From Marsupella aquatica (lineage: Eukaryota > Plantae > Marchantiophyta): a DNA stretch of 64,000 nucleotides. Made by a program: the position numbers and the translations under genes. Shown here in pieces: positions 8,576-51,434 of the stretch. The stretch is taken from the NCBI GenBank assembly GCA_973895155.1, contig OZ316894.1, positions 2,868,457-2,932,456 on the forward strand, written 5' to 3'. The notes beneath the pieces were generated by a model that saw only the letters and a list, made by a program, of their open reading frames with translations, ran no database searches and had not been told where the DNA came from. Every line of letters begins with the position of its first letter. Position 1 is the first letter of the stretch.

Positions 8576-8792
8576 AACCCCAATTTAAGGAATACTGAAG
8601 TATTAGATTAATTCCAATTTTATCTAAATATTATTAGTTAATGAATGATCAACCTCTTTAACATTTGGTGGGATAGTCAAAAACTTCAAATGTTTTGTTG
8701 CAAGATCTTTATAACAATGCATCACTAAATGACATGAAGTACCTCTTGATCCATGCACAAATCCTTAATTAAACTATCATTCATTGTTTCAA

Positions 8793-9368
8793 TTGTCTAT
8801 TTAATTATTATAGGGTTGAATACAAAAAAGATTGACACGCACCAGGGTGCGTGACCTACAATCATAGTAAGTACCACCCTTTAATTAATTAGTTTCTTGA
8901 CAACAATTAATAGGATTGTTGTATATTACAATGTCTACTGGACATTCATTTGAATGTCAATAATATCATGCCTTAATATCACCAAACTAAGGGCCCACTA
9001 ACTAATATTATATCTTAAATAAACTAACCAACTAACTAACTTGTCTATTTAATTACTATAGGGTTGAATACAAAAAAGATTGACACGCACCAGGGTGCGT
9101 GACCTACAATTATAGTATCACCCTTTAATTAGTTAGTTTCTATTGCTTTGACTCAATCAAGCATGGAACCATATAAAATCAGAAATCATTGAAAGTTGAG
9201 TTCACTTGAGGGTGTAACTATAATTATGATTTATTAATAGGATTGTTGTATATTACAATGTCTACTGGACATTCATTTGAATGTCAATAATATCATGCCT
9301 TAATATCACCAAACTAAGGCCCCACTAACTAATATTATATCTTAAATAAACTAACCAACTAACTAACT
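8793..9368. repeat. Subterminal direct repeat, ~248-bp unit x2, each copy carrying ACGC-ACCAGGGT-GCGT
   Basis: TTGTCTATTTAATTA... starts at 8793 and 9041; the second copy has an ~80-bp insertion. Confidence 0.9.
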
Positions 9369-9463
9369 TAGACGATAAGACTTGTCTAAACTTGAGTTCT
9401 CTGGCTACTACTATTCTGAGTTGCCTTTTAAACTGTATGCTAAACTACATGCTTCATTACTGT

Positions 9464-12400
9464 CTAGGATTTGTCACTTGCTATGCATGTCAAGAGATAG
9501 TCTCTTGCCTTGACAGCAACATTCTTTGGAATTCCTACCAGCCCTGTCATTGGTCCTTTGCGTGCTTTGAAACACCACAAGGCAGAGGAAACATCTATTG
9601 TCTCAACTTCCTTGTATATTGGAGATGGATCACGTTCCCATTTCTTATCCCAAGAATCTGCCCACCGCTCTCTTGGCTGCCAGTCTGATTGACCACGTTG
9701 CTTCTTTGCCATAAATGGTCTAAACCACTCAACGCCACATACATGAGTAAGAAGGTTTTGTTCATTCACTGGTCCTTCTACCACATCTATAACAACTAAC
9801 CCCATATGGACGGGATAAACATCCAGGTCTGAGTCGTCCGGCCGTACCAACACATAACAGCCCTTCACAACATCAACCCTAGGGTTAAAACTCTCAGGAG
9901 GTTTATCTTTTGCTGGTCCCACATAATCCACTGTTGCCTCCAACTCACATGCCACATTTCGATATTCTGGTGGAACGTGCTCTCTCCATATTGATAAAGG
10001 CCAAAACCCGTATTCCAAGTTGTGTGCACCTTCAGGTTCATGTTGCACCTGCTCACCCTGTAGAGTATCTACAATGTCATTCCAATAATTGATGAGAGTT
10101 GTCCAACGTCGCTTTGGTTCTTCCTCTTTTGTTCGCTTTAGAATAAACTCAAAGAATGACACATGCTTCTTCAACCCTGTCAGCACTTCAGGAAGCATTT
10201 TCAACTCCATCATTGGTAGCCGTTTGGGCACCCCAATTGGGATGTGAGGACTTTTGTCATCTTTCCATGACCACATTTCAATACCTTCCTTGGGTAACCA
10301 TCCCTGATCAGTTGACTTCATTTTGTATTGGAAGCATGGCATACTATCATGACGAACATAGAACCTAAACAGCCTGGGTTTTAAATGCCCCACCAATGCC
10401 TCAGGGCCCTTCAACATGAATGGAGCTAAGTAGTTTTTGAAATTTGGGACCTCCTGTAGAAAATGTGGGACTGCATTGGGTGTCCTTGCTCTCATGAACA
10501 AGGACATTAACTCAGGCAATGAGTATGTGGGGTTATGCATCATAGACTCTGAAAAATTCCCGAACATACCGTCAACGTCCTCATGAGTATGCCCAACCAC
10601 CATAAAACCAAGATGAACCTCTTCAAACACCTCCCTTGCCGTCAACAATGACAAATAAGCCATCATATATTTGTTCTTGTTGTCTGAGGCACAATTATCC
10701 AGTTGTAGCTTCAATACTCGTGGAAGGGGCCTGAACTTTGGTGCCTCAGGTGCTGCATCACAATGTAACAATCTCAGAATGCTTTTAAATAAAACCCTAG
10801 TCAGACCCTAAACCCCAATTTAGGGTTTAGGGTTTAAACCCTATTAATGAAACCTTGGCTAGGAGGAGCAACAACTACACAAAGTAGAGTGTCAGTGTGT
10901 GTGAGCTTATATTATTAAATAATAATAAATTAAAGGATTGTGAGTAAAGTACCTAGGCTTGAGATGTAGGCAATGTCATCCTCAAATGCTCTAAGGACAC
11001 TTGCCTCCAAGATATCTGCTCTCCCAAAAAGGAGGTCTTTAAAAAGACTTGTCGAGTCTGGCCCCTCCACAAGTGATTTGATCATTGGATTTGGGTTTTC
11101 CAACATCCTTAGTATTGAATCAATTGACCCAATAGTGATGTTGACATCACCTGGCCACACTCCAACATGATATTGGGCTATGGCCTTGGGACCATGACCA
11201 TGAGTAAGGATACCAGTGACAGTAATTGGGAACTTTTGGGCACCATCCACATGCTTAGGATTGAAGGGCATTCTTGGGAGAGCTGTCTTTGAATGATCCA
11301 TCTTATCATGAATAAGGCATAACACTTCCTTTGGACGATGGATGGACTCATATCTCCAGGTATGATAGCACATTCTTTGTTGTGTGTGGTCTTGGTGATG
11401 TTCCTCCTCGTCACGCCTTAGGCCCTCTAACTCTTCCTTAGCTCCTGTAAGGTTTGCTTTCCGTTGAAGCAACTCACTACAAGTTGTACACTTTGAAAAG
11501 TTGTTGCCCTTTTTGTGACGTGAGAACTCCCTGAAATACATCTTATGTAAATGACTCAAGGTGGGTTGGAAAATTGGAGGAAGACCAGCCTCCTGGTTGA
11601 CAACATTAACCCTGTTTCTAATATTCTCCCAAGTAAGATTTGTTGGCAATTCCCTCAAAACCATCCTTGTATTATCTGCCATGGTTCTCAACTTGGCTGG
11701 ATGATGATCAGCTGCCTCCTCAATAATCTCTTTCATTGACATGAACGCTTGAGATACTTTCTCGGACATACGCCTTTTTCCAGCATTACCATGGGTACCT
11801 ATGTTCATTCCAGCCATCACAGTCTTCTTCAAGGCATAAAATTGAGTCTTTCCTCTTGAATGAATGATTCTCCATGCCTCCAAGCACAATACTTTGCCCT
11901 CCACTGCTAGAATCCTTTCTCCAGTACCCAAATGTATTGTATTTTTAATAGCCTTGATTTCCTCCTCCTTGCGCTCCGCAAAAGATTTTGACCACCACTT
12001 TTGCCTAATTGCCATAGCCAAGTTGCGGTCCAAATATTGGCAACAATGTTCACTACAACAGTCCTTAGTGTTTATCAACAACACATCTTGACGTGCCAAA
12101 GATGTGTCTCTTCTAGATGTCTGGGAAGATGGACTCTTTCTTTTCCTACTTTTATGGACGTAGGACCGCTTGCCACTTGTTGGAGATGTGTTCCCTCCCA
12201 CAGCTTGCCTGATGTTGTGGAAAGACAACAAGTTGCCATCCTTGGCAATGAGTTGGTCCATCGACCAAGCTTTTAAGCAATCTCTATGCTTCAGATGATC
12301 TATGGTAGCTCCCTCGACAAAATCGTTGATCAGAATTCCCACATGTGTATTCCCAAGGGTGACATCCCCAAGCTTGACTATAGGATCTAGAACATGTATA

Positions 12401-12840
12401 GTTGCCACTGCAAATATCAACTTGTTCTCATCCACCACCTTTACAGGCATGCCCATCCACAAGGCCTTTGGTAAAACTACTTCCACACCAGACCGACTCT
12501 CATTATGGTTGTTCCCATCAGAATTTTGATTGACTGGATCTTGATCATCACCAACAGTGCCAAACACATCCTCCGATTCCATGGGAGCTCGAAAAAGCTG
12601 ATTCCTTTCCCATACAAGGTAACCCCCAATCATGTCCTTCAAAAGTTTGCCATCTTCGCATAGAATGGTCTCGTCAAAAACTTCCTCCAATAGAAGAAGA
12701 ACTCTGTCCGCCCCAAGAGGAACATTGTGACAAACCCTGGAAGGATCAAGACTTATCACGCGACCTTTTCCAACCTGTTTCTCACGTATGCCTATAATTA
12801 CTTGTCCGCCTTCCCTGATCCAGACTGTCGATGTCACCAT
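9464..12840 (-). CDS. DDD transposase (Sola1-like), ~1058 aa; exons 12840-10953 and 10752-9464; the true start may lie in an upstream exon
   Basis: A phase-1 GT-AG intron (10952-10753) joins the 644-aa and 435-aa ORFs in frame. Motifs: CTTC...HHQDH, LIHDKMD, LKLQLDNCASDNKN, FMVVGHTHEDVDGMF. Two N-terminal repeats resemble TNP1/Transposase_23-type barrels (VGKGRVISLDPSRVCHNVPLG...YLVW). No stop codons seen. Confidence 0.85.
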
Positions 12841-13239
12841 AATAATTATGATCCTGCACATCAAAGAATATCACTGTAAGCGTATAGTCCTGTCACGTCC
12901 GTCAATTTCACTGCATTGTCCTGTCATGTCGGTCAATAAGCAGAATGTAGTCAATGCACTGCGCTACACGCGACTGGTCGCGTGACCCTAGAGGTACCAC
13001 ACATACCGGCAACAGACTATGCATGGTCCGTCAGTCATGTCAAATGAATGAGAATGACCACAATCGATTACGATCAATCATTTCACATCCACTCAGAACA
13101 AATGAGTGGACAGTCAGTAACTACTAAGGACAGTAGTGCTAATAAGCGCCAGTAAAACGTCCGTGAACTGCATTGTCCTGTCACAACCGTCAATAAGTAG
13201 GCTGAATGTAGTCAATGCACTGCCCTGCACGCGACTAGT

Positions 13240-13690
13240 CGCGTGACCTTAGTCAGAGGGTGTACGGATAACAGGGTCTACGACGTAGAAGCTAGAAGGC
13301 TAGGCCCAAACTCTAGCTCGTACTTGGTACTTCATAAGTAAGATACGATTGCGCGTGAGACAGGAAGATACAATTACGGATCTAAAGGCATGTCGCGTGA
13401 CCTTAGTCAGAGGGTGTAGGGATAACAGGGTCTACGACGTAGAAGCTAGAAGGCTAGGCCCAAACTCTAGCTCGTAATTGGTACTTCATAAGTAAGATAC
13501 GATTGCGCGTGAGATAGGAAGATACAATTACGGATCTAAAGGCATGTCGCATGACCTTAGTCAGAGGGTACAGGGTCTACGACGTAGAAGCTAGAAGGCT
13601 AGGCCCAAACTCTAGCTCATAATTGGTACTTTATAAGTAAGATACGATTGCGGGCGTGACAGGAAGATAAATTATGGATCTAAAGGCATC
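13240..13690. repeat. ~154-bp tandem repeat x3 upstream of the transposase, embedded in a larger duplicated block (~12900-13840)
   Basis: CGCGTGACCTTAGTCAGAGGG (third copy CGCATG...) starts at 13240, 13394 and 13548. Confidence 0.9.
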
Positions 13691-14163
13691 ACACATACCG
13701 GTAAAGATAATGCATGGTCCGTCAGTCATTTCAAGTGTGAGAACGACTACAATCGATTACGAACAATCATTTCAACTCCACTCAGGAAAAATGAGTGGAC
13801 AGTACCAGTTTACAAATGAGTGGACACCGGACAGTCAGTAACTATTGACCTTCATAAGAAATCTCAGTACTTCACTAGCAATCAGTATTCCCGGGGCGGT
13901 CGCCAAACGTGAAATTATAGTCATAAATAGAGGATAACTGAAATTCCTGCCAATTCTAATACGCGCCAGTCAAACACGCACCCTCTTCTAGAAACCACTA
14001 TGTACAATGACTAGTGGAGACTAAACAGTATAAAGCATTGAGATGATCTCTATTGCTCATTCCCCCACGCATTCCACTTTCTGGCTACTGGATAATCTAT
14101 TTGCACATCAGCTCTCTCATTTCCAATTCTTAGTCTCGGTTAGCATCTCTTGTTTGAAGGGCG

Positions 14164-14706
14164 ATGACTACTCCGCTGAGCTCGAAGAATGAGGATGTTT
14201 CGACGGACGATTCAGAAGGTTCGACATATCGAATTCGTGGTACTCCTTACAGAATGTGTCAGCGATGTAATATAATGTTTACGGTGACTAAATCGGGTCA
14301 AATGTTTTGTGAGAGATGACATTGTTTGCCACATTTGTCGATGGAAGATCAGATGGAGACCAATCCGACAGAGATGACTACAAAGATGGCATCAGGGGAG
14401 AAGTTAAAGGGCAAAGCCCTCGTGGAATCCGTTTCGAGGGGGGAGAAGTTTAAGGCCAGAGCATGCGTCAAATCCATTTCGGGGGAAGCAGCAACAGACG
14501 CTAAGACAGTCAAGAAGGAGGCCAAGAAAGTGGACGCACCGAAGAAAAGGCAATTAGAGATGAACAAAGATTCTGATTTGTATTACAGAAAAAGCAAGCC
14601 GAGAAAATCTATGGACGTTAGGACTTGGGCAAAGGAAGAATTTTTGGATTCAAGGGAATCCACACCAGACACCGATGAGTGGATGCCTTCATCTTGGAAT
14701 GACTGA
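14164..14706 (+). pseudogene. Small (~180 aa) cargo ORF with a Cys cluster and Lys-rich tail; one premature TGA
   Basis: ATG at 14164 is in frame with the listed 14326 ORF: MTTPLSS...RMCQRCNIMFTVTKSGQMFCER*HCLPH. TGA at 14317-14319 is probably derived from CGA. Confidence 0.5.
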
Positions 14707-14801
14707 CTCGATCGAAGTCAACAATATTTTGAGTAGTTGAAGATTAGAACTACAGATTCAAGAGTAGTTCAAGTTAGAACTTGTTATAGATACTGTAGCT
14801 T

Positions 14802-15245
14802 TCGACTACAATAAACACTATCAAAAGACATGAGATAAATTGGTTCACGCGACTGTGCGCGTGACGAACTACATGTGTAACCAAAAAATAGGTCATCCTA
14901 CTAACAAGTTGAGATCAGGAAGATCTCTGAAATAAAGGGCGATTACGTCTAAGAGTGCAGAACTTTCGCTGACCTCTAAAACATTAACGCGACCGTGCGC
15001 GTGATGAAATGAAGACGTTGGTTTTAAAATAGATTTCTGGCCAATTCGCTAGGCTGTCGACTACAATAAACAATATCAAAAGACACGAGATAAATTGGTT
15101 CACGCGACTGTGCGCGTGACGAACTGCATGTGTAACCAAAAAACAGGTCATCCTACTAACAAGTTGAGATCAGGAAGATCTGAAAATGGACCTCGATTAC
15201 GTTACGTTTTGCTAGGCCGTCGACTACAATAAACAATAGCAAAAC
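14802..15245. repeat. ~255-bp direct repeat (about 2 copies) carrying ACGC-N8-GCGT sites
   Basis: TCGACTACAATAAACA at 14802, 15057 and 15220; motif at 14847, 14987 and 15102. Confidence 0.85.
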
Positions 15246-17760
15246 GTACGGACAACTATACGCGTATGCCATACAATTATAGACTAGAGAATTCATTCGG
15301 ATCCTCTACTAGTACTTCTGATACATTGCTTCTGTATTGGACTTGAAACACGGATTGATCAAACTCGAAGTGAGAAATTGGTCCATAACTTCATTGACTC
15401 AATTCATGCATTGAATGCGTGATTTAAGGCAACTACTCTCCTCATTTATTGTGGAATTAATGCTGATTGATACTTACAAGTTATTCAGTTGTGTGTGGTC
15501 TCAGCAATGTTGGCGGCAACCCTCTAATGTTGGCGGAAACCCTCCTCCCAGCCAAGCCTCTTCCTTCCAGCGTACCCTCCTCGTCCCAGCCAACTAAGCC
15601 TCCTCCTTCGAACTCCAATTTCCTTGAGTATCATGATCGAATCCCACCACCAGAGAATGACAACTTGTTGATCGTATCAAGATCAAAATCCTTGACCAGA
15701 CTGTGATTTCAGAATAGCCGCTCTTTGTTGGTCCGCTAGAATGCTTCGATGAATGAGGCAGACTATGGAGGTTCTAAATGTTTGTCGTCTTGCTTCGTCG
15801 CAACTCTCCCGCTTGATCGGATGTGCTCTCCCCAAGATTGAAGGTGATACAACAAGAACTGCGCCAGCGTTGCTTGAATGAGCTCCGCCTTCGACTGGAA
15901 TAGTCGAATGATCCAATCTGCTCCACCTCAAATGTGCCTTGGATCAGCCTCCGCTGAGAGCCCAGCTAGTATCCTGGTCAGGAGAAACTGAAAATGAAGA
16001 ATGATCCGTGAGCAATAAGATCAGTCTATTGACTCCATGGAGGATGTGTTCATCTGGACTCGATTTTGATTTTGAAAATTGGTTGAGTCTCCAGTCATGA
16101 GAATCATTGTACAGGATTGATTTTGAATATCGGTTCTCCCCGACCGTGAGAATCGTTTTACGTTGTTTAGAGTAAGGGTTTGAATTGGTAAGATAGAGAG
16201 TGGAGTACGGATCCGGATCCAATGGTCTCCACTACCAAAATGGAATGATTTTGAAGTTTGCCTCCACTACGTGATGGAACGATCGTGAGAAAGTTGTCGT
16301 TCGTTCATATTTTGGATTTGAATTGGCAGATATAGTGAAGATACGGATCCGGATCCGGATCCGGGGGTCCCCACTAACAATCTTTCGCAGTTGCATAATT
16401 ACCGGTTTAAATTTCAAATTGGCCATCAAATAGAAATCTCCTTTAGTACGGAAAATCAAAAGGAATCCGGTAATCTTTTTTTCACGATTGCATAGTTTGT
16501 TCAGTCGATGGTGGAGTGTACGGAGATCATCTGGAACCTTCCTGTCGCTAGGCTGTTATTAGGGTTATGCTAAAACAATACCCTAATTAGTCCTTCCTTA
16601 GTGTCGGCGCCCACGGTCTCGAGTTCATTGTTCATTGTTGTTGTTTCTCGCTCCCTAGACTTTTGCGCGCCTGCTCTTGTCGCTCTCGCTCTCGCTCTCA
16701 TCGCTCTCACTCTCGTCGCTCTCGCTCCTGCCCTGGATTTCATTTTTGTCGTTGCAGCTCGTTCGTTGTGGTCAGGTGCTTGTCGGCGCGTTGCAGCTCT
16801 TAGTAGTTGTCCATCGTTTCGACCAGGAGCTCGTTGGCGCATTGCAGCTCGCATTTATAGCTCGTATTCACTTCTAGTTTGCTAGTTCGTTGCAGCTAGC
16901 TTTTTGGGAGTGCTTGTATCAGCTCGTGTCAGCCAATTTTAAGCTCATATCAGCTCAATCAACGTGTTTCAGCATTTAGGTTTGTTTCACCTCTTTGAAT
17001 CTTCAGGTTTAGTGCGCTTTTATTCATGCTCAGTTTGCCTATCCACAGCTTTGATTGTACTTCTGAAAGAGTCTTTTTAACTTGACATAATGAGCTCCTT
17101 AGCATTAAGCACATGTTATTCAATAGGTGGCAGCGAAGCTCTATGTATAGAAGTATAGAAGCTATGTTGTTATTGCTTAGCATATTAATATCTTCAATCT
17201 TATATTTACTTTCTGGAATGCCGCAGCAAGGTGTTCAAGTGCTTGGACGTCAATCTCTCAGACGATTACATCAATTTTTCAGAATTCAGGTGTAATTTCT
17301 ACATTTTCTGCTGGTGTTGATTGTGGTTTGCTAAAATTTCTCTTGATTGTTAAGCACAATTTTCATAATGCGGTTTGTTTGTAAACTCAAATATGTGTGA
17401 ATCATACAAACTCACTAATTAAAATACAACCTGAATCGTCTTAAGTAAGTCATTACAAACTTGCACGCTGTGAATTTAATCATATAAACTCTCATGTTAT
17501 GTGAATCTCATTACACTGAATCCTTTAATTGACGAATACAATCAGTAGACTGCTAAATTGAATCATCTTAGCTGGATCATTCTCTAAACTTCTAATATAT
17601 AATAGTTTCACAATGACAGAGCTCAAACATCTGAATTATTGTAAAGTTCATGAATGAATACAAATGAATGATTATGCTTCCTCGGATTTCCTTGTTCGTA
17701 CGGGTCAGTAATCACAGTTGTATCACTGTATTATCCTATTGTCCAAAAGTTGTTTCAGCT

Positions 17761-18530
17761 ATTGACGCAACCAGTCGCGTGAAAATACTATGAGGTTCCT
17801 TTTAGGACCAGTTGACGCGACCAGTCGCGTGTGAGAAGGAAACTGGATAGATTTATTGAGCGCGTACCATATCCAAATCTCCACAGAAGGTTCAGTGGAT
17901 ATAGTTGTTTAGGTTCAGTTGACGCGACCAGTCGCGTCTGACGTAGATCTCTCATTGACTCGCTCTGTTAGAGGAGGTAAGGTTCCTTTTAGGACCAGTT
18001 GACGCGACCAGTCGCATGTGAGAAGGAAACTGGATAGATTTACTGAGCGCGTACCATATCCAAATCTCCACAAGGAAGGTTCAGTGGATATAGTTATTTA
18101 GGTTCAGTTGACGCGACCAGTCGCGTCTGAGGTTGCTCTCTCATTGACTGGTTCTGTTAGAGGAGGTAAGGTTCCTTTTAGGACCAATTGACGCGACCAG
18201 ACGCGTGTGAGAAGGAAACTAGATAGATTTACTGAGCGCATACCATATCCAAATCTCCACAAGGAAGGTTCAGTGGATATAGTTGTTTCGGTTCAGTTGA
18301 CGCGACCAGTCGCGTCTGAGGTAGCTCTCTCATTGACTGGTTCTGTTAGAGGAGGTGGGGTTCCTTTTAGGACCAGTTGACGCGACCAGTCGCGTCTGAG
18401 GTTGCTCTCTCATTGACTGGTTCTGTTAGAGGACGAAGAAACATTTATGATTTCACATTGTGACCCGAAAAAATCAGTCTCTCAAAGAATTGTTTATGCA
18501 TTCTGATTTGTAGACGCGACCAGTCGCGTG
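17761..18530. repeat. 189-bp tandem repeat (~3.3 units), each with two ACGCGACCAGTCGCGT palindromes
   Basis: Palindrome at 17765, 17815, 17922, 18002 (1 mismatch), 18111, 18191, 18300, 18380, 18514; spacing alternates ~109/80 bp and the intervening sequences are themselves repeated. Confidence 0.93.
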
Positions 18531-18675
18531 AAAATAATCTCTGGGATATATCATTTGGCTGAAAAAAGTCATGGGCGAACCTGGTCTGGAGAGCTTCAGA
18601 TGTCTATGCCCAATATTTGACGTTTTGGACAGAAGCCAAGATGGTCTACTTGCGGGATATTATGTATTTGTTGAA

Positions 18676-19170
18676 ACACTACTACCTGGACTTCCAGATT
18701 TCATTGTCGCGGAATTGATATGGCCTCGGATCTAGGAGACTTTTAATTCCTCGGCTAATGCAGGAAATTTCTCAATAAAGGAATTGGATGAGTTTGTAGG
18801 ACTATCTTCGGTGTGTCGTAGATGGCGCCACCTTGTTGGGAATACCTATCTTCTGGGTGTAATCAAGTTGAGTTTATTAGATTTGGCTTTCCCAGGAAAT
18901 CCTACTAAACCGATCGGAAATGAGTCTCTCTCATCGACAGTTCAAAGTTTCTTCCAGAAATACCCAAGAATTAAATTCATGTGGTCAATGTCCAGAGATC
19001 TTAGGGAACTCTTCACGAAGACTTACGATGCTCTTCACCCTCTTGAAAAATGGAAATTTACAGTCAGATGCCACGAAGTTGGATACCTTGAGGGTGACAT
19101 CTACGCTTTTAAGGAATTCTAGTTAACTTACGTGATGAAGCGCGTCGTATGTCTTCTAACAATGTTTTGT
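18676..19170 (+). pseudogene. F-box-like cargo gene, copy 1 (disrupted; start uncertain)
   Basis: TLLPGLPDFIVAELIWPRI*...FVGLSSVCRRWRHLV; TAG at 18733 is in frame with the 18784 ORF. Confidence 0.65.
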
Positions 19171-19187
19171 GATATGATAAAAGCAGG

Positions 19188-19775
19188 ATGAGCCAACTTT
19201 TGAATGAGGCTTGAGATTTCCTTTCATCTCATGAAAAGAAACAGAAAACAATATGGGATACGCTAGATGAAACCTCCTCTAGTCTCATTGGAGGAATACC
19301 AGATGTTTTGGTCATTTCAAATATTTGGCCAATACTCTACGAACACTTTATTTCAATTGAAAGATTGCGTGGATATCGACACCTCGATAACGATTTGGTT
19401 ATCGATAGGGTCCGAGACCTTATTCGGCTTGGAGCTTGTAGCAAGAAGTGGAACTTTTTAGTTACAAATACAAGGTTATGGGCTATCCTCAAACAAGCAA
19501 ACCGGATTGTCGATGTCGCAAATGATGCTCTTTACGACATACCCGAAACTGAGGAGTTGGAGTTTGACTCAGTCTATCGAGTTATTTGACAGGATATTTC
19601 TATGCTTCCAGAAATATCTGTTCTTGGGACTACTACTTCTGACGAAATCGCATTGTTTACGAACAAATATAGGAATTTAGATGAGGAAGAACGAGATGTC
19701 CTAATCGAAAGGTTTGGTAGATTTTCTCAGAATCTCGGTGGTCCCAGTTCTTATTGGATAGGTTCTTGTTCTTAA
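19188..19775 (+). pseudogene. F-box-like cargo gene, copy 2 (two in-frame TGA stops)
   Basis: SLIGGIPDVLVISNIWPILYE...LIRLGACSKKWNFLV; after the TGA at 19587 the frame continues DISMLPEISVLG...LDEEERD, paralogous to the copy 3 C-terminus. Confidence 0.65.
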
Positions 19776-19806
19776 TCTTTTCCATATTATGCTGTAGTCC
19801 TTTGAC

Positions 19807-20319
19807 ATGAATCAAAAATCTCATCGTCAAATGATGATGGAGCGCATTGCACGTGCAAAGGTTATGAACCGAAACATGATATGGAGTCAAGCTGAAGACC
19901 TGATACCCGGTCTTCCGGACGATATTGTCGAGAAATATATTTGGCCATTAGTCAAAGAGTTTTTCCACTGTCTTGGGAATTTGTCGGATACTGTGATTAA
20001 AAATTGGGTCATGGACTTGATCGCCATTCGAACAGTCAGTAAGAAGTGGTGCCACATAGTTACTTATAGTAGTACATGGGCGATGGTCACCTTGGTAGCT
20101 TACGACTTCACTGATAGACCAGGATATGAATCGCTTCGAAGGCATTTGACTTCACGGAGTGTAGCATTAAGATTTACAGAATCCATCAGAACTCTCCCGC
20201 CGCTGGACATTTTGGGTGGATTTGAAGGATCTGAACTTGACACGTTTAGGAACCTTTGGTTTTGGTTAGATGAAGATGAGCGAGAAGATTGGGTCAGGAT
20301 AAATGTTCCTAAAATGTAA
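19807..20319 (+). CDS. F-box-like cargo protein, copy 3 (intact, 170 aa)
   Basis: DLIPGLPDDIVEKYIWP...LIAIRTVSKKWCHIV matches the plant F-box pattern (LIPGLPDD...VSKxW) with an internal insertion. Confidence 0.7.
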   Translation: MNQKSHRQMMMERIARAKVMNRNMIWSQAEDLIPGLPDDIVEKYIWPLVKEFFHCLGNLSDTVIKNWVMDLIAIRTVSKKWCHIVTYSSTWAMVTLVAYDFTDRPGYESLRRHLTSRSVALRFTESIRTLPPLDILGGFEGSELDTFRNLWFWLDEDEREDWVRINVPKM

Positions 20320-20394
20320 TTCGGCAAGACGCGACCATGCGCGTGTTAGTATTTTATAATAAATGTTTAACTTTCAATATTTGTCTGTTTCAGA

Positions 20395-23300
20395 ATGGAT
20401 CCTATCGGAACCTCAAAGCAGAAACGAGACTCGTCTAAAGCTGCTTCTCGAAAGAAAGCCAAGACAAAAATGACTCCCGCGGAGACATCCATACTTGCAT
20501 ATCGAGGAAAGTCAATCAGAGAGAGAACAACGGAGACAAAGAGTATCCATCTCTTTGAATCGACTGAGATATCCGATTTTGGAATAGTCGTTCGCAATGG
20601 GGCTGTCCGTCTTGTGGTGGCAAGAAATGATAAAGCTACAGTTTTGGAGAGATCAAAAATTCTCGGGTGTTTCGTTGAGAAGAACATGAAAGTTAAAGAG
20701 TGTACAGAGGGATTGGTTCTGTTAGTCAGCGACGACCAGCAGGAAGACAAAATAAGCATTTGTTTGGATCGAACGCAATATGTAACCTTCAATCAGCCCA
20801 GAATCGATGATCTTCTAGGTGCAAGGCATGCCTTGGAAAAGGTTACTAGTGTGGGATATCCTTCCGATCCAGAGGCATCAACGGGAGATTTGATTTGTCA
20901 ATATATTATTGACGTACTTGAGTTCCAGAGAGTTCCTTTCAACCAGGGATTTCGCTTGGGAAAGGCCCCGCCAGTGAGCAAGGTTGAAGTATACTCGGTT
21001 GAGAATCTTCCGAAAGTAATTACCTCAGCGAATGTCGGGGCTCTGTTCGATTCTTTCCTCAAAGAATATAGTGCTGTGAATATATTTAACAACAAGTCAT
21101 TTTTTGTTGAGACATCACGTTGTCATCTTGCACCGGACCACATCAAGTGCCGAGAGTGGAATCAGGATTACACAGATAGGCTAAAGAATTCACTCCTCTC
21201 TCATTCGGCTATAAAGTTCGAGAAGCGATGCTGCTTTTTAGTCCCTGTGAAGTGGGTTCAGTCGAAGGCCGACAGAGATCCCGACTACAATGGGACGCCC
21301 TACGATTCATCGCCAAAGGAGGAGGACATTATGACCAGTCATTTCTGGATACTCGGAGGCCAGCACACAATAATGGCGTACAAATTGCTGAGAGAGGACG
21401 ACAAAGTCAGCCAAGTTGTACGAGACGCTTGCGGTACTGTAGAAGCTGTAATGTTTTGGGCAACGCTCAACAACGACAATAATGTTCATTTGATGGGATT
21501 ATCGAAAGCTCTGAACCACTGTCATCAAACATAAATGGAAGAAGGACAGTTTCTCACCATTGTACGACAGTGTCGTAATATCTGGAACTCATTTGGGCGG
21601 CCTGGATCACATTATCGTCATCCAAATTGGAAGGTATATAAATAACCCTCTTCGATCACATTATCGTATAAACTTTTGTCACACAAACGGTTGCGTCAAG
21701 CTTAGAATTGTCATGTTTCCATTGTTTTTCAGGTATTTATGAGAGCTACGAGTTTTGTCTGCCCATGGGCTCAAATGGGGAAGAACAAAATGATGAAATT
21801 TGGAGAATTGGCTCCGTTTCTCTTTACAATGGAGGACGAAACATTCAAGAAGTGGATGGAGGTCTACGAACGATCAAGGATAGGAGAGCTTGTAATTTAC
21901 AACGGAATTTTACAGAGGGACGCCGTCAAAATTGCGGATAATCCGTGTGCTTATCATCTTCTGAAGAAGACGTTCCGTTCTTGTCAAGGGTGCTCAGACT
22001 CAGTTCTTCGAAAGGCAGCGGAATATATGTTGAGCGGAAGACTGTCTATACTCAAAAACCGAAGTATCAAAGTGAAATCTGGAAAGGCAAGGAAGTCCTC
22101 TGAGGCTCCAGTGTTGTCAACGACCAGCATGAGTTTGGAGCAATTCTGTATAAAGAAGAAGACGAAAGTTGAGTTTGAGATTTTATTATTGAGTAAACTC
22201 AACGGGGAAACATCCACCCGGACGGAGCTGAAAAGTCTAATAGATTCAGCGTGGAAATTGCGGGTCAAAGGAATGATTGATCGCTTTAAGCTTGACAAGA
22301 TGGTGCTGAAGCAGTTGAGAGATGCGTTGAGTGGTTATCTGAAGAAGTGCTTAAATGTAAATATTAGTAATGATAATTTTTTGAAGGAGATCGACCCTAT
22401 ATTCTACAAGTTGGTCGAAGGAATACAGAAATCAGTTGATAGTCAAGGAAACCAACTAGTGCGGCCGGTCGGTGAGAGGCTGAAATTGCGATCCCTGCAG
22501 GATATACAAAATGCTGGGTTTGCAGACTGTATCATACGTGAAGACAAGAACCTTGCGAGCTTGATTTATTTTGATCCCTCATCAATGGGAGATTTGCGTC
22601 CACCAAATTGCTCATTCTATGAGGGGTTATTTCGTGCTACTAGCGAGATAGGGGCAAAACCACACCATGTGGTTATTATTGTAGCCTCTCCCGTTGAGTC
22701 TTACTTAATCAAACGGGAATTAGGGAAGTATACACACTACGTTGCTGTCGATAGCCATTATATTCAGAGGAGGCCGAAGGAGAAGAAGCTTATTGTAACC
22801 TACGCTTTTCACAGCTTGGCCTTCAGCACAATGGGCGATCCACAAGCCCTCGAGTTCCAATTGGTCTCCAAATATCAGATTGAAAAAATATCCAATTTTG
22901 AAGAGAGCGACGAGTTCACGACACCTTCCCCAGAAAAGATACTTCCATTCTTTGAAAGTATTGTTAGTCAATTCGTCCAATGTGGGGAATGGGCTATATG
23001 CTTCGGTGAGGGAACGAACTTGATCCAGTGCTTAATGGTAAGTTTTGAGATTTATATTTTGGGGTTTTGATTTTAAGATTATTTAGATTATTATATTCTC
23101 AATCAATATTGTGAACTAATTTTCGGCTTTTTTACAGGATGCTGGATCCAATGTAAAATATTACTGCCCTATGGCAACGCATAGGGAGTTGTCTTGTTTC
23201 TTGCAACACACCACGGCGACAATTGATACAACGCTATCATTGATTGACCCAGTACGGGCTAGTATAGAAAAATGTATAGATAAATTAATGAAGTACCGTC

Positions 23301-23605
23301 CATCCGTAACTGCTCTCAGGGCTGATGTTTTGGATGTCCTCCACGAACAACATATCCCTGATAATATTTGTAATCAATTATTGCAAGAGTATGCACTCTC
23401 TGAAGATTCCGATCGATTGTACATTCGACCAACGAAGTACCCTAGTGGGCCAATCCAAGGTACGTTACTTTTGAAACCTCTTACTTTTTATTGCGTCACG
23501 CGAACATGCGCGTGGACATTCATAACATTTCTTTTCACGCGTGAGTCATTCTTATCAAATCATCTGATTTTATTCAGATCAAGTCGACTGCGGCTTCAAT
23601 GTTGA
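20395..23605 (+). pseudogene. ~950-aa ParB/Srx-like domain + degenerate beta-class amino-DNA-methyltransferase-like cargo gene; exons 20395-21633, 21733-23037, 23138-23459, 23578-~23605; one premature TAA at 21532
   Basis: GT-AG introns join the 379, 443 and 144 aa ORFs in frame. ParB-like: CREWNQDYTDRLKNSL...FLVPV...FWILGGQHTIMAYK. MTase-like: SLIYFDPSS (DPPY position) followed later by EKILPFFESIVSQFVQCGEWAICFGEGTNLIQCLMDAGSNV (FxGxG position). Gene structure is well supported; domain identity is inferred. Confidence 0.65.
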
Positions 23606-24124
23606 GGATGCAGGGAGCAATGGTGATGCGGATGGTGAGAGGGAATGTAATGCTGTACATTCGTTAGAAATGATGGAAATTTTATAAATTTTAAACTTTT
23701 TCTAACTCAAGGTACAATCTAGTTACCTTTTGTAGCAATTTAGATCAACTGAACACTTAACCTAATGTTATGCTTCATCGGAGGCTATTGTATTGGACAA
23801 GGATCGCCAATATAAAGCCGTGCTCTTTACATGCTACCAAGAAAGAAGACTGGACATCATTGGAGAAGCAATGCAGACTAGAAGATTCAAGAACCGGCCT
23901 CCAAAACACTTTTTCAACAAGAATGAGCTCTGTATACAATTATCACAATCAGCCGATCTCTGCTATTTTAGTTAAATAGCTATCATGGTCAGAAAAGTCT
24001 CATACTTTTTCAGGAGGTAGTAGTTGCGTAGTAGAATCATCCCTGCAAGTTTCATCTCAAACCGACATGTGGTTTGAAAGTTAGAATTAATTTAGTTTTG
24101 CTGTTTTTCGCATAGCCGCGACTT

Positions 24125-24745
24125 CGCCGACGCTTTGTGAAGCGTCCATTGTATTTTTGGACGCTTTGAAAAGCGTCCACCCAAAGACCACGACGCTTTC
24201 TGAAGCGTCCACCACCCAACCAGTTGTACTCCGACGCTCTGCAATCCACATGAGGAGCGACGCCCACAGAAGCGTCTGCTACCCCGAAGGTGACCTCGAC
24301 ACTGTGACGCCCACTGAAGCGTCCCGCCCGGAGCCCAGAAGACGGACGCTGCGACCAAACCTCGAAATTCAGCCGACGCTTTCTGAAGCGTCCACAAAAG
24401 TCCTTTGTAGGTTTGGACGCTTTCTGAAGCGTCCACTATGTTCCCGACACTTAGAAAATTTTTCAGTTTTCGCACTTTTATAACACTGCACCACTTTTGC
24501 CGATTTATTTGAGACACTTAGAGATCTTAGAAAAGTCTGAAACTTTGCCAGCATATAGACTATATGTAGTAGAGTACCCTAGAAAAGTTTCAACTCCTTC
24601 CGCCTCTTAGTTTAGAAGTTAAAATTAGATTAAGATCACTGTTTATTAGTTTTACCGCAAACACCGACGCTTTGCAAAGCGTCCGCTCAAACCTCGACGC
24701 TTTGAGAAGCGTCCCCTGCATTTTTGACACTTTCAGCAGTGTCCA
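24125..24745. repeat. Cluster of GACGCTT-N4-AAGCGTC-type palindromes
   Basis: ACGC-N8-GCGT at 24130, 24161, 24193, 24260, 24307, 24376, 24417, 24667 and 24697, plus a decayed copy near 24727. Confidence 0.9.
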
Positions 24746-25677
24746 TTCACTTTTCAAGGATGATCGTCATTAAGTTTATTCAAGACCCTTTAGATATGAA
24801 AGGGCATGTCCTTTCAGTATCTCAGTCTCCTTGGGTTCCTGCTAGCCTATATGAAGTAGAATTTGTGTCATTTTCATGTGTGAAGAAATAAAGTAGTGCC
24901 TGTGGCATGTGTTGCAGCACTGGAATCACCTTTGCTTGCAAATGCAAAAGGAATTCTTCTCCCTTCCTTGGTCTGAATGATTGAGAGTTTAGATCATTGA
25001 AGTAAAATTACTTGTATGAAGTTGAATCTCAGAAGTATGAGGGAATAGATTCCTTAAGTGGTGACAACCCATCTTCTTGAGTTCTTGATGCATAGTTTTT
25101 GGCGTGACATTGCTTGTGCATGGGATGCAAAGATTGTTACTCACCAATTACCTATGACTTCAATTTGATCATGATGGTGTTTATTATTCGTGACTCAGAG
25201 TACCGACTGGATATCGAAGTGATTGATTACTAGTTTCTTCTGAGTACCTTTGGAAGGAAAAGTTGAGACGTGTTGACGGCATTTTAGTAATCATCCTAGT
25301 ACAGTAATCCATTCCAAAAATGTTCTTACGGATATACCACCCAAATCACATCAAATGAAGTATTAATGAGAAGTTACCTTGGTGTTTTCCAGACTCCCTC
25401 ATCATACCTCAAGATTTCATTGTGTTTTGTTATTTGTTTCCATTTTATTAATTGCATTTACAATGTTAAGCAAACATTCAAATCTATGCCTTGCTGAGCA
25501 ATCATAGTAAAAGGGTCAAACCTGTGCTTTTTGTGACCTTAGTCATTCATAAGTGTTAAACGATAGAAAATCATTCCTTTCTTGTTCTTCCATGAGATCG
25601 AATACCGAGTTTTGGACATTAAATGCTGATTTATGTCCTTAGTATAATACTACAGGGAAGGTGACGCGGAAGGTGAC

Positions 25678-28600
25678 ATGGATGGGGATTTCAATGACCA
25701 AGATCCAGAGTGGATGACCGATACGCAGAACGACGTCGGAGATTCCGACAATAGAGGAGATGAAGAGAGTGACGGAGAGGAGATGAAGGATGCTGAGGAC
25801 GCTGATGAAGAGGACGAGGAGATGGAGGGTTCCGAGGATGCTGAGGACTCTGATGAAGAAGCCACACAGGAGCCTCGACGTGAGGTGGACCAAGAGGAGG
25901 CGGCCCGGAAGGAGGAGGCCAGAGAGGAGGCGGCCCGGCAGGAGGAGGCCCGGCAGGAGGAGGCCCGGCAGGAGGAGGCCCTGCACGAGGCGGCCCGGCA
26001 GGAGGAGGCCAGGCTGGAGGAGGCAAGGCTGGAGGAGGCCCGGCAGGAGGCGGCCCGGCAAGAGGAGCTTCAAAAGAAGGAAGCGGCCCGGCAGGAGGCG
26101 GCCCGGCAAGAGGAGCTTCAAAAGAAGGAGGTGGCCCGGCAGGAGGAGGCGGCCCGACAAGAGGCGGCCCGCAAGAGCAGCTACAAAAGAACGAGGTTAA
26201 GAAGAAAAAGGCAGCAGCTAGAAAAGCAACTGCTGCGAAGAAGAAGGAGAAAGCCGAGGCTGAGAAAGCGGAGGCCGAGAAAGCCCAGGCGGAGAAAGCG
26301 GATGCCGAGAAAGCCCAGGCTGAGAAAGCGGAGGCTGAGAAAGCCCAGGCTGATAAAGCCCAGGCTGAGAAAGCGGAGGCCGAGAAAGCCCAGGCTGAGA
26401 AAGCGGAGGCCGAGAAAGCCCAGGTTGAGAAAGCGGAGGCTGAGAAAGCGGAGGCTGAGAAAGCCCAGGCTCAGAAAGCCCAGGCTGAGAAAGCGGAGGC
26501 CGAGAAAGCCCAGGCTCAGAAAGCGGAGGCCGAGAAAGCCCAGGCTGAGAAAGCGGAGGCCGAGAAAGCCCAGGCCGAGAAAGCCCAAGCTGAGAAAGCC
26601 CATGCGGAGAAAGCCCAGGCGGAGAAAGCCCAGGTTGAGAAAGCGGAGGCTGCGAGAGTCCTTTTAGTGACAAAGGAAAATAGGGCCAAGGCGGAGAGTG
26701 AGGCGGCTGAGAGGCTTCTAGCCGAGAGGATGGCGGACGAGACCGCAAGACCTGAGAGGGTGGAGGCGGAGAAGTTGGAGGCAGAAAAGGTGGATTCCGC
26801 AAGACTGGAGAGAGAAGAAGCCGCAAGACTGGAGGCAGCAAGGAAGGAGGCCGAGAGGGCCAAGGATCTTTCGCTTATTCCTTAGGCACAACGTCTACCA
26901 AAAATAAGGCTGAATTTGAAGAAGCCTTCTTCACCCTCAGTTGCAGTTAAGAAGAAAATATTAGACTATTTTCTTCGCCCGGAGTTTGAATTTAACAATC
27001 CACCCTTAAGTACGGTCTCGTTGGATGATTGGAATAAATATTCACCAGCGCAACTCCGAGTCCAGGCAGTCCTTGCTTTGCAATATTGGAAGGGTCTTTT
27101 GATTACCGAGGAGAAGACTGCCACTGCATCCAGAATGGAGACAATCATCAATAATGTGCGCTTTTCCGAGAATCGAGTGCAAGACCTGGGAACGTTTTTG
27201 GCACCAGACTCGGCTCAAGTCATTAAGAGACTAACAGCTGACTTGACGCGACCGGGTTCGTGGTCTCGATCCCGATATATTGCAGAGGTGACTCGCGCAG
27301 AAATTGTGGCACCGGATATTTTGGAATCGGATTCCCAGATTGTGGAATATTTGAATCAAATGCCACAACCATTTGAAGGTCTTCCCGCCTCATCGCTCCA
27401 ACCTTCACAAACTGGTCCGGTGGAGCGATCACTGCGGTCTCGAGGAGGGCTGAAGGATGTTGTTGCGATTGAGGCACCCAAGAGATCAGCTGCGAAAAGG
27501 CCGGATCCACCCAATCCAAAGGTCATTCGCAAGCTATAAGCTTAAAGTTTCTATTATAGACGTCATTATTTTATTATTGATCCGTTATTGTTTCTGTTTT
27601 CTGAGGCTACAACCCTTAGGCTACAACCTCAGTACGTTATTTGAAGGCGTTCTGAAATCTCTGTTTTTTGCAGTTTTTTGAAAATTTGGCTAGTCGAATA
27701 GATCAATGCCTTGATCCTTCTAAGGATATGGAAGAGCTATTGACCAAGTTCTTACAACACTCGATCAAGAGGAAACATATGATGTGTCTGAGACCGCGCG
27801 AGTTGCTCACCGATGATATAATTAACGCTTATTTGAGTTTTCTCGAACTGATTCTCGATAGAGTTGGAAAGTCAGACCTTGTCAAATTCTTCCAAACACA
27901 CCATTTTGAGCTTCTCTCCATGGATCCTACCATTTTCGACGAGGAGAGAGCAGCTTGGACAAAGGAGTTTCCGCTAAAAATCAGTGAATATGAGAAACTG
28001 GTCTTTCCAGTACACAATGCTGTGAAAGAACATTGGTCATTGGTAGTCTTGTATCCGAAGGAGAAACGGCTGGAGTACCTAGATTCTCTAGTTCATAATC
28101 GACAAAATCCTGGGGTGCTAGATATTGTTGGGAAGTACTACGCCGACGAAATTGGCTGGAGAACTGGTGTCAACTTGGATCTCTCAGGTTGGGAACGGAT
28201 ATATCGGAATGATATTCCTCACCAGAGTGACGGCCACAGTTGTGGTGTGTTTATCTTGAGATACGCCAAGTGCTTGTGTCAAGGAAACGGAATTAATTTT
28301 GCCGCGGATCAAATTGAGAAATTCCGTAGGGAGATAGTCTTGTCGTTATTTGACATGGACTTCCGCAAGCCGACGTCCGCAAGTAACCTAGTTACCGGGA
28401 TCCGTGCTGCTATGATTGACATTTCCGGCAGAATTCCAACACTGAACGACCGTCTTGTACAGGTAATACACTTCATTTCAGTGTCTCTCTTTGTAGTCAC
28501 GCGACCGTTCGCGTTATAAACTTATTTTCATTTCTTAATGTTTTACAGAAGCCTATCCCGAAACCCCCTGATCGAGTATCAAAGGCACCAGTCCGGAAGT

Positions 28601-29454
28601 CCGGTGATTGTCCGAAGGCGGGAAACAAACAGACCGTTCTAGTACGTTCTCCAAACCCTGCGGCACAAAAATCACAGGTACAGATGGCACCTAATCCATC
28701 GGCAAAGAAGTCACCGATTCAGAAGAGACTTGTAATTTTTGATCTGAATCGGGTACTTATCTGGTCAGAGAAGATCAGCCCTGGGATGCCCATTCGGTCA
28801 AGGGGTGTGAGACAGATGCACAAGGTTATCTATCCAAGGCCTGATTTAATGGAATTTCTTGAGAAGGTGGCAGATCTATACGACATTGCGATTTGGTCGT
28901 GCATGTTCAAACGGAATATTCTATCTTGTGTAAGGCTGATACTTCAACCCGAAGTTTTGAAACGTATTAAATTTATATGGGGACAAGAATCAACTCGACT
29001 TCTTGGGAAGAATAATAATGACATCCCTTTATTTGTCAAATGTCTCTCGGACATTGCCGCCGATATTAAAGATTACAACATCGAGAATGTCATTCTTATC
29101 GATGACGCTGCATATAAGACGAGCCTTAATGACTTCTATTCATCGCTGTATCCCGATGCATATTCTGGGCTCGATGATGACCTATTTTTTAGAAAGAAAC
29201 AATATCCATATCTATGCGACATGTCAATTGACAAGTTGACATTCCGCGAGCTCCTTAGTGGATATGGGATTCCAACGTTCTCTCAAGAAAATCTTGAGAA
29301 AGATTATATTGATAAGACGAATCTTTGGAGGAGAAATGTGATCATTCGTAATCAGGGGAATAAAGACCATTTAGAAAAGTTTGACGAATTTATGAAATAC
29401 TTATCTACCGAAAAAGACCGTGCTATAGAAGCCCGGGATAAGTCCAATAAGTAA
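25678..29454 (+). pseudogene. Multidomain cargo gene: acidic tract, EEARQ/AEKAQ coiled-coil repeats, Ulp1/SENP (C48) protease and FCP1/NIF-like HAD phosphatase domain; 1-bp frameshift near 26170 and TAG at 26883
   Basis: Introns ~27522-27672 and 28463-28548 link the ORFs in frame. C48 triad intact: EHWSLVV, YLDSL, QSDGHSCGVF. NIF-like motifs: KRLVIFDLNRVLI, YPRPDLMEFL, IAIWS, NVILIDD. Confidence 0.8.
25890..26650 (+). repeat. 15-bp coding minisatellites (CGGCAGGAGGAGGCC, then GAGAAAGCCCAGGCT / GAGAAAGCGGAGGCC)
   Basis: Directly visible pentapeptide repeats EEARQ and EKAQA/EKAEA. Confidence 0.92.
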
Positions 29455-29579
29455 ACGTTTATTGTTTATTATCAATTATTATTTATAAATTGATTAAAAT
29501 TGAACTTTTGGGAGTGACGCGCCCGGTTACGTGGTTGTTTGCAATTGCATAATATGAGAATCGAATTGTTCATTTATAG

Positions 29580-31102
29580 GTGTCTAAGTGGAGCAGGTCG
29601 CGTCAACTTCTAGTTTTAGGACTGGAAAACTTCCTATGCTCTGTTTCAAAATATACTCCTCAGCTCAAGTCGGCACCCGGAATTCGTATCGGATCTCTAT
29701 GTGTCGTTCCGAGGCCGCATCTTCATGATCTTATAAAATTCTGTTATGATCATTTTGATGTGATGGTCTGGTCTATTCTCGACGATAAACTGGTTTATCA
29801 GATACTTTCAGAAGTGTTGTCGAGCACCGACCTGTCGCAGCTGATATATGTGTTCACGCGGGATCATTGCTGGAATCTTGGTTATGTGAAGAAAAATTAT
29901 AAGACTGTTGTCTTCAAATCTATCGAGAGACTACGTGATATGTTTCAAGATTATCGACCAGAGAATATAATCCAGATTGATGCCTGTCCTTCCCGTACAT
30001 GCCAGACAGCTGTATGCGGATTATTGTTCGCTAAGTCGTTTCAAGGATCGTTGGATGATGTCTTTTTGAGGGATGACCTCATTCCATATTTACGAAAGCT
30101 ATCAAATTCAGGGCTTTGTCTTGCGTTCGCTAACAAGTTCGATTATCCCATCTGGTTGATTAGAAATCTACATCGAGATTGGGATCTGAACGAGGATATA
30201 TGGGAGCATCTGTACGTGCAGAGACATGCGGATCAAGTTCTTATCAAGCACTTCAACAGACGTCACTTATCAATGGCCAGAGTGTAGAGGATGTTTTCTC
30301 TGTAATATGTGACGCGACCATTCGCGTGACTACATCCATACGGGCTCATGCATCTTCTTGTGTTTCTCTACAGGAGATTCATTGCAGCAGAGAAAACGGG
30401 CTCATAGTTTTAGACGTGGAGCATCTACTCTGTTACACTGCACCGCATTCCCGACTGATGGCGGTCTCAACTGGAATTCGGATTGGGAATATATACATTT
30501 TTCCAAGGCCTCATCTTCATGAATTCTTGAGATTCTATTTTGAGAATTTCGATGTAGGGATCTGGTCCTCTCTTGGGAAGAACCTTTTAGATCAGATTTT
30601 AGCATCTATTTTTACTGCGATGGAAATGGCCTCATTTAAGTATATTTGGGATCAGTCTAATTGTTACTTATGCGATGGGGTGACATCAAATAAGCGGATA
30701 TTTTTGAAGTATTTTGAGAAGGTTGGAATTTATACGAAGGCGTATCTGCAGCAAAATATAATGCTTATCGAATCCGATGCATTTCATGCTTGTTTAGATC
30801 CTGTTGTTGGATCATTATTTCCACCCAAATATTTTGGGTCGGTCGACGACAGTTTCCTGATTAACTTGCTAATTCCGTATCTTAGCAAGCTAGCAAACTC
30901 TTGTGAGCCGCTTGTCATTGCCAATGGAAGAGATTATCCAAATTGGTCAGTTAAATCTATTTTTAGAGATTATGATTATAATCATACTCTATGGGAAGAC
31001 CCTGTGATTCAGAGGCATGGAGATAGATATCTAGTAGAGCAATTTAACAGACGCCCAATTTTGGACGCTTCCAAAATAATAGTCGGCATGAGATCAGATT
31101 AA
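29580..31102 (+). CDS. Two further tandem FCP1/NIF-like domains with degenerate catalytic motifs; exons 29580-30281 and 30374-31102; may continue the upstream Ulp1 gene
   Basis: QLLVLGLENFL...VVPRPHLHDLI...VMVWS...NIIQID and GLIVLDVEHLL...IFPRPHLHEFL...VGIWSS...NIMLIES; a phase-0 GT-AG intron at 30282-30373 joins them in frame. Confidence 0.7.
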
Positions 31103-31370
31103 TTTGTCTTGTCGTTCTAGAAACCATTTGTAAACTCCTTATATATTGGTTATCATATATAAAGGATCTCAAAGATTTATTTCTCTATTATTATTATTCG
31201 CGTGAGCATGTCTCTTGGTCCCATCAAGTTGGATTGGTTAAAATATGACGTTGCAGTCATTTTCAGGGTTTCACGCGCAGCCACGCGTCATGTCGCCCCC
31301 TTTTTATTAAAATAATAATATTTAGTGATTTTCGGAATTTCCAAAGTTTGGTTTTCCTTAAATTGGGGTT

Positions 31371-51400: not shown

Positions 51401-51434
51401 AGTACAGCGTTAGGGTCAAGAAAAGTTAATCGAG

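Follow-up and report, generated by a model that had tools for sequence, protein, structure and literature searches.

A single gapped palindrome, ACGC-N8-GCGT, tags the non-coding DNA of a 22,795-bp Sola1-type DNA transposon in the liverwort Marsupella aquatica. The element occupies positions 8576 to 31370 of a stretch of 64,000 nucleotides (contig OZ316894.1 of assembly GCA_973895155.1, positions 2,868,457 to 2,932,456 of the forward strand), which we refer to as the window and to which the coordinates belong. It combines a transposase gene with a cargo on the opposite strand, for which F-box-like, ParB-like, Ulp1-type protease and NIF parts are predicted. A regular-expression search of the whole window located 29 exact sites inside the element and none in the 41.2 kb of flanking DNA, host genes included. 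The enrichment of the word is not due to chance and is confined to the element, and the tagging is real, specific and testable. All 29 positions that a first-pass annotation had listed by eye were matched exactly, and the absence from the flank, noted there from an incomplete scan, now holds exhaustively for the window.

By chance the word should hardly occur, with 0.18 sites expected from the element's own 4-mer counts and 0.23 ± 0.45 found in 100 dinucleotide shuffles of the window (largest value, 2). Among the 256 × 21 = 5376 gapped palindromes tested in the element, it ranked first. Spacer 8 is the only one of the lengths 0 to 20 that occurs inside the element, the other lengths giving three sites window-wide, all outside it. 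The element contains 128 half-sites, 58 of them paired and 70 unpaired, and the density of the unpaired ones is that of the background (3.1 per kb inside versus 3.2 outside). Much of the count represents local duplication; grouped at separations above 400 bp, the 29 sites form 10 clusters, and the independent units are these 10 clusters or about 20 flank contexts. The enrichment of the 10 clusters, corrected for 5376 motifs, has a P value of 5e-11 to 3e-8, and the isolated sites in unrelated flanks agree with the earlier argument that no single amplified unit explains the whole set. The one-mismatch copies that had been reported do exist (at 18002, 21681, 27246 and 29517), but as a class they provide no evidence, because spacer 8 is no commoner among them than other spacers (7 sites versus 2 to 9 at spacers 4 to 13).

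Half-sites and spacing are indeed fixed, but the spacer does not vary freely as had been thought, since the sites fall into three classes with inner arms of their own: A, with 18 sites (mostly ACGCGAC), B, with nine (GACGCTT), and C, with two (ACGCACC). All of them are non-coding, in short introns, intergenic repeats and both ends of the element, and none of the 10 clusters overlaps the 12.8 kb (56% of the element) assigned as coding (P = 2.6e-4). The two C-type sites (8837 and 9085, spanning 8837 to 9100) belong to a 248-bp duplication near the left end. Five A-type sites (12968 to 15117) are found in 255-to-261-bp duplications between the start of the transposase and the cargo, and eight more, together with the one-mismatch copy at 18002, in and around a 189-bp tandem array with two per unit (17765 to 18529). 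The nine B-type sites form a modular block (24130 to 24712) inside a 2-kb non-coding stretch, and the last A-type site (31273 to 31288) is 82 bp from the right end. Seven GT-AG introns are predicted in the cargo, all on the plus strand, and four of them hold one exact A-type site each, 13 to 38 nt from the donor. These are a 78-nt intron (20316 to 20393, site 20329), a 118-nt intron (23460 to 23577, site 23498), an 86-nt intron that connects the Ulp1 frame with the first NIF frame without a shift (28463 to 28548, site 28499) and a 92-nt in-frame intron before the third NIF domain (site 30312). The remaining three have no exact site, and two of the three hold a one-mismatch site. One of the latter, 29517, is in the gap before the second NIF domain, beside which one family contig set has an exact site (joints of 28494-28514 with 29550-29565), a weak indication given a side of 21 letters. 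At position 17769, three runs read G near full depth, restoring the commonest A word.

The inner arms can pair at all three positions in 12 of the 29 sites and at none in two sites, while outer arms and spacing are invariant. Because the outer half-sites stay fixed where inner pairing is lost, a dimer reading duplex DNA fits the sites better than a hairpin does. The alternative is that the sites fold into hairpins, in RNA or in single-stranded DNA, to signal splicing or processing, or that they are readerless by-products of repeat turnover; it could appeal to the 12 fully paired sites and to the many sites in local duplications. We give it little probability, as several sites have lost inner pairing while their outer arms show no compensating change, isolated sites stand in unrelated flanks, and both spacers and introns are occupied.

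Sister families carry different words at like places, a possibility that the first-pass annotation had raised. The sister set consisted of the best 80 of 442 confirmed transposase-alignment loci in metagenome contigs, 59 after merging near-identical ones; 54 of these make up the main sister clade, and five (L001 to L004 and L021) were set aside as other branches. ACGC-N8-GCGT is nearly absent from them, appearing once each in two of the 80 loci. In the main clade its place is taken by GTGGCCAC, with 143 copies in 615 kb (54 loci) compared to 0 to 11 for ten control palindromes. At least one such site lies within −6 to +4 kb at 42 of the 54 loci, with transposases 48 to 99% alike (median, 62%). 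There are no copies in the first kilobase of the transposase core or in the 1 to 2 kb before it, and the peaks flank the core. The right end was found at 24 of the 54 loci, and there 38 copies fall in the last kilobase inside the element and none in the first kilobase outside. The word, often extended to TGGTGGCCACCA, is located in subterminal repeats with a period of ~113 bp and in non-coding gaps. One locus, L054, is a full element (675 to 11947, 11.3 kb) with ATAT on both sides and 27 of 30 end bases matching; it has NIF cargo, 20 sites inside and one outside, and no ParB match. At L012 and L019, a ParB-like exon (E = 2e-18) and NIF exons are separated by a non-coding gap with three sites; this ParB-like/NIF gene may belong to one element with the neighboring transposase. 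A third word was found at L021, where 10 copies of a 22-bp palindrome around ACGG-N8-CCGT lie on either side of the transposase frame, eight before it and two after.

These comparisons bear on whether the word is simply a site that the element has acquired for a host factor acting in transcription or on chromatin. Non-coding placement and the CpG retention described below fit any protein reader, and one sister word stays the same throughout its clade, but the 41 kb of flank has no site even in its host genes, and sister elements use unrelated words at like places. To our knowledge there is no plant factor with the orientation and spacing of ACGC-N8-GCGT (no motif library was compared), and we consider a host reader very unlikely. 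The word is probably read by a dimeric protein encoded by the element itself. The same proposal in the first-pass annotation accords with the confinement, the fixed spacing, the non-coding placement and the swapped words of the sisters.

The cargo provides one candidate. It begins with three short frames with weak F-box matches (18736 to 20315, plus strand; Pfam E of 0.001 to 0.01, below the cut-off), the third of which joins the ParB-like exon in frame across a predicted intron. A predicted ParB-like domain with a GGQHT motif, then a helical and an alpha/beta region, follow on the same strand (20395 to 23459, spliced, with a stop at 21532). An acidic and 15-bp-repeat coding region with an Ulp1-type protease exon comes next (25648 to 28462, plus strand; frame shift, stop at 26883; PF02902, E = 4e-18), and then three NIF (FCP1-like phosphatase) domains (28549 to 31102, plus strand; PF03031, E of 4e-10 to 4e-14). 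Five of the seven predicted introns join their neighbors in frame, one leads to a downstream frame that could not be determined, and the last is out of frame. In the distant homologue P0075, a single chain combines a ParB-like region with a weak NIF match. Because of these five introns and that single chain, the F-box, ParB-like, Ulp1 and NIF cargo is likely one long spliced gene, as far as gene prediction can indicate.

A profile search with exon 1 retrieved 62 representatives at an E value of 0.001 or better. Among 21 aligned homologues, G102 and Q103 are invariant and there is a conserved proline upstream and a conserved asparagine downstream, a pattern which we take to resemble the ParB boxes. 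We infer that the GGQHT-type motif corresponds to ParB Box II. The earlier description of a ParB-like protein has the motif pattern and weak fold matches in its favor and the missing GxxR arginine against it. There is no PDB or Pfam match to ParB for this region, and a Pfam scan of 16 element frames (100 amino acids or more) gave none to ParA. The N-terminal 110 residues of the exon (20395 to 20820) are modeled with confidence as a beta-rich fold with weak PH-domain matches only.

The first-pass annotation had labeled the same protein "ParB-MTase-like," and the methylase half of that label was not confirmed. N4C/N6A methylases have the catalytic motif (D/S/N)PP(Y/F), which is not present in four aligned exon-2 sequences; the expected catalytic place, whose position is inferred, reads DPSS, DCSV, DSTL and DST. 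Neither the window protein nor three homologues matched a methylase family. An active methylase of the N4-cytosine or N6-adenine type, encoded by the element, could still have the word as its target and so mark its own element, as gapped palindromes are typical methylase targets and the exon-2 model has an alpha/beta region. Moreover, available passages on the Ectocarpus element Sola1-1 describe ParB plus an N4C/N6A methylase (PMC12477816). With the missing family match and the four altered catalytic places on the other side, we hold this explanation to be improbable.

The cargo has kept its CpG dinucleotides. The CpG/GpC ratio is 1.10 in the cargo exons (327 per 298). In the transposase exons, which have no sites, it is 0.41 (51 per 124; P = 5e-8), in the copia retroelement that hosts the transposon 0.62 (164 per 264; P = 8e-6) and in host DNA 0.88 to 0.89. 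The CpG-rich part starts at ~12.5 kb, beside the first A sites, and the left end (8576 to 9463, 888 bp) has five CpGs, four of them within the two C-type sites. It is a fair reading of these ratios that the cargo has been subject to low methylation over the long term. That the sites keep the element unsilenced we can only infer, because CpG is kept over the cargo but not near the sites in the sister clade. Variation among family copies was available for 40 of 83 variant rows. Over the B block, none of these 40 variants fell in the 72 half-site bases and five fell in the 72 spacer bases (P = 0.02 versus uniform; P = 0.06 for half-site versus spacer).

In the mechanism that we propose, a dimer of the predicted ParB-like protein would read the two ACGC half-sites on double-stranded DNA, load at the sites and likely keep the cargo region transcribed and unsilenced, and through its private word the element would recognize its own copies. 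The protein would act in trans from intact copies, the gene of this copy being broken. The Ulp1, NIF and F-box parts probably belong to this same chain after splicing, and they may act on chromatin or on the transcription machinery near the sites. The sites themselves would multiply by local duplication, as the VANC motifs discussed below do, and the B-type ones might have the same reader or one of its paralogues, from a related family. Among the candidate readers of ACGC-N8-GCGT we place the predicted ParB-like protein first, as a self-recognition and anti-silencing factor, and see the case for it as evenly balanced.

Several observations weigh against that role. The GxxR arginine, needed for nucleotide binding in Box II of ParB according to passages of PMC12704722, is absent in all 21 aligned homologues, where the motif consists of GQH or GQR and then T, S or N. 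The ParB families of PHROG were matched by four and one of the 21 (E of 0.03 to 0.5, and for the four no better than 0.05), the Atlas ParB_N cluster appeared at 0.91 as rank 27 of 30, behind DUF3723, and the folded ParB region had a pLDDT (predicted local distance difference test) of <50. Across the gap that precedes the second NIF domain, the reading frame is not continued. As for silencing, the two left-end sites keep their own CpGs while those of their neighbors are lost, the gradient in the CpG-rich part is slight (1.13 within 100 bp versus 0.84 to 0.99 beyond), and in the sister clade CpG/GpC is flat at 0.30 to 0.36 at every distance from a site, in a comparison where GTGGCCAC has no CpG and the copies may be dead. 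Site 24667 is interrupted by gaps in one contig, deaminated sites occur in some copies, and the variant evidence covers less than half of the rows (40 of 83). Finally, a compact sister element, L060 (4.6 kb, about 7782 to 12423), holds four sites with no match to ParB, NIF, Ulp1 or F-box, and sister sites recur at certain distances from the end repeat, as expected of transposase sites.

These last two points bring in the transposase, which might bind the sites through a domain other than the end-binding one, for transpososome assembly or for self-activation. It stays in play because compact sister elements without a ParB gene hold sites. The recurrence involves positions ~65 to 89, 202 and 315 bp from the right end and the gap that directly precedes the transposase core. 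Neither motif nor end repeat changes within a clade whose transposases are 48 to 99% alike, and transposases can be sequence-specific activators (10.64898/2026.08.24.746577, in part). However, 26 of the 29 window sites are more than 2.8 kb from either end, several are in cargo introns and none is in the transposase gene, ACGC-N8-GCGT is unlike the end repeat, the binding of TnpA and AtMu1 is at termini in the passages of the same source, and the compact elements may have arisen by deletion and be served in trans. On balance we find the transposase a rather unlikely reader. The words track transposase clade and ParB presence imperfectly, so that either protein may be the reader.

The B-type sites require separate consideration, as the block looks part of another repeat. 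Depth in run X1 was 44 to 97 over 23.3 to 25.8 kb versus 1 to 28 in the other internal bins, 24090 to 24784 is skipped by one contig each in runs X5 and X1 (with unknown letters between), and many contigs match only ~24500 to 24686 and then continue as other sequence. Because of this raised depth, the skipping contigs and the partial matches, the B-type sites probably sit in a separately amplified repeat, and they may not be read by the same protein as the A sites, since a repeat history of their own is possible. The claim of three unrelated repeat families was right in that there is more than one unit, while the third family probably came with this separately amplified repeat. At 24725 to 24744 there is a tenth B-type unit in which both CpGs are altered in a deamination-like manner (ACAC ... 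GTGT).

The system is a variant of a kind already proposed in algal transposons, while sister words at like places are new here. Sola1-1_Ec32 of Ectocarpus is described, in the passages available, as a Sola1 element of ~21.5 kb that carries, opposite the transposase, an accessory gene for ParB plus methylase, whose product was suggested to bind the element encoding it and to modify it (PMC12477816). The size, the Sola1 type and the ParB-like accessory gene opposite the transposase are shared. The methylase predicted there is unconfirmed here, and the cargo of the window adds F-box, Ulp1 and three NIF domains and belongs to a land plant. The passages name no binding word for Sola1-1_Ec32 ("palindrom" does not occur in the main text). 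In the Plavaka PAG cassette of Bostrychia, arrays of inverted repeats beside the ParB-like PAG3 are proposed as its target, with no binding test in the parts of the source available (10.1101/2025.02.11.637652). It too is a giant DNA transposon with a ParB-like accessory protein and inverted repeats as proposed target, but the superfamily is another, the partner domain is a 2-oxoglutarate oxygenase, and its arrays are tandem and beside PAG3, whereas here one word is scattered through introns.

Outside the algae, the VANC proteins of Arabidopsis VANDAL transposons recognize a family-specific word in introns, spacers and ends, which is tandem-duplicated and differs between sister families (PMC5735166 and PMC10398659, in part). 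The window element shares a family-specific non-coding word, spread by tandem repeats and differing between sisters. VANDALs are nevertheless Mutator-type, as opposed to the DUF7869 transposase and 4-bp duplication here, and in the same passages their words are of 8 to 9 nt, non-palindromic and reported with no ParB-like fold, compared to a 16-bp palindrome. VANC binding and demethylation were demonstrated in Arabidopsis, and would be the counterpart of what we propose. Spm TnpA and the AtMu1 transposase activate cognate copies via clustered family-specific words (10.64898/2026.08.24.746577), which would be similar to an element protein reading such words here, although theirs are terminal and non-palindromic. 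Among bacterial systems, passages on VirB present it as a ParB-family anti-silencer, so the ParB fold can counter silencing (PMC10245682). ParB/parS resembles the window in form, with a palindromic site repeated on the same DNA, and in the predicted ParB-like domain (PMC12704722, in part). The absence of the GxxR arginine and of ParA among the frames scanned sets the window apart, and the cytidine triphosphate (CTP)-dependent loading and spreading of ParB is to be compared with a protein whose ParB-like fold is a prediction and whose use of CTP would be hypothetical. We found no paper on ACGC-N8-GCGT or the sister words (supplements not covered).

In the passages available, the two papers on algal transposons propose ParB-like proteins that bind their own elements and give neither a named word nor a test (PMC12477816, 10.1101/2025.02.11.637652). 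The present locus offers a precise, falsifiable site, with its sequence, spacing and three variants, and the sister elements with other words are matched material for swap tests, in a land plant that methylates CpG. A ParB-like protein that read the word and lifted silencing would be an independently evolved counterpart of VANC derived from a bacterial fold; if the transposase is the reader, transposase-driven self-activation would extend to Sola elements with internal sites. A broader scenario is offered tentatively, and we have more doubt than confidence in it. In it, giant transposons of non-seed land plants would carry a bacterial-derived ParB-type clamp without the nucleotide arginine, reading a family-private palindrome in every intron and spacer and delivering deSUMOylase, C-terminal-domain phosphatase and F-box activities to their own element. 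Reader and word would diverge together between clades, and compact elements and passenger repeats such as the B block would copy the word and be served in trans. This would amount to a eukaryotic parS-like self-recognition code, would add a third independent route of sequence-specific anti-silencing to those of VANC and TnpA, and would supply DNA readers programmable by family.

The element is flanked by a target duplication, ATAT, at 8572 to 8575 and 31371 to 31374, and has short terminal inverted repeats beginning AACCCCAATTTAAGGAA. A 4-bp AWWT duplication is a hallmark of Sola1 (PMC3845634, in part), and with both the duplication and the inverted ends present the element is of Sola1 type. 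The label is based on these two features, the transposase being known by Pfam DUF7869 and by unnamed or liverwort homologues. Its gene consists of two long frames on the minus strand (9464 to 12870; PF25273, E = 8e-37), CpG-poor and with no site inside, and its closest named relative among 31 matches is from Calypogeia fissa (65%). The transposon is inserted in the integrase region of the host copia retroelement, which is on the minus strand (5898 to 34630, right end approximate) and has no site; an uninterrupted copia junction is represented by a loose contig ending at 31371 in three of four public runs. The copia element and the insertion are presumably young, because the long terminal repeats of copia differ at four of 360 compared bases. 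Thousands of contigs match the transposon at 99% to <90% identity (7,247 in run X2), and it therefore belongs to a multi-copy family with diverged members.

Some minor features accompany the element and its relatives. A 154-bp tandem repeat of three units (13238 to 13689) begins inside site 13229, and its later units start with the right half-site only; each unit has a stretch with ~15 of 18 letters like the I-SceI cleavage site, which we presume to be chance. The gap between the transposase frames (10808 to 10930) has a short telomere-like run of AAACCCT units and no CpG, and the spacer between transposase and cargo (14343 to 14706) has a short basic/acidic open frame with no family match above the cut-off. 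Among the sister loci, the palindrome of L021 (52 to 690 and 2837 to 2977) has an ACG-N10-CGT outline, as in the window word, and the contig is CpG-rich (123 CpG, 142 GpC). In L014 (14009 to 15386) and L011 (17288 to 18668) there is a cluster of eight to nine TTCC-N4-GGAA sites at a distance of ~9 kb from the transposase, with unrelated flanks, probably another palindrome-tagged repeat. In L065 (6516 to 7993), a cluster of 12 TAGG-N3-CCTA sites, located past the transposase and before the right end, is possibly a nested repeat. In the rest of the window there is a third copy of part of the copia long terminal repeat at 59685 to 59906 (82 to 90% alike), genes for an ABA/WDS-induced protein (51414 to 52052, plus strand) and an LRAT-domain protein (54553 to 55491, minus strand), and, at 60 to 64 kb, long inverted repeats ~1.4 to 3.9 kb apart.

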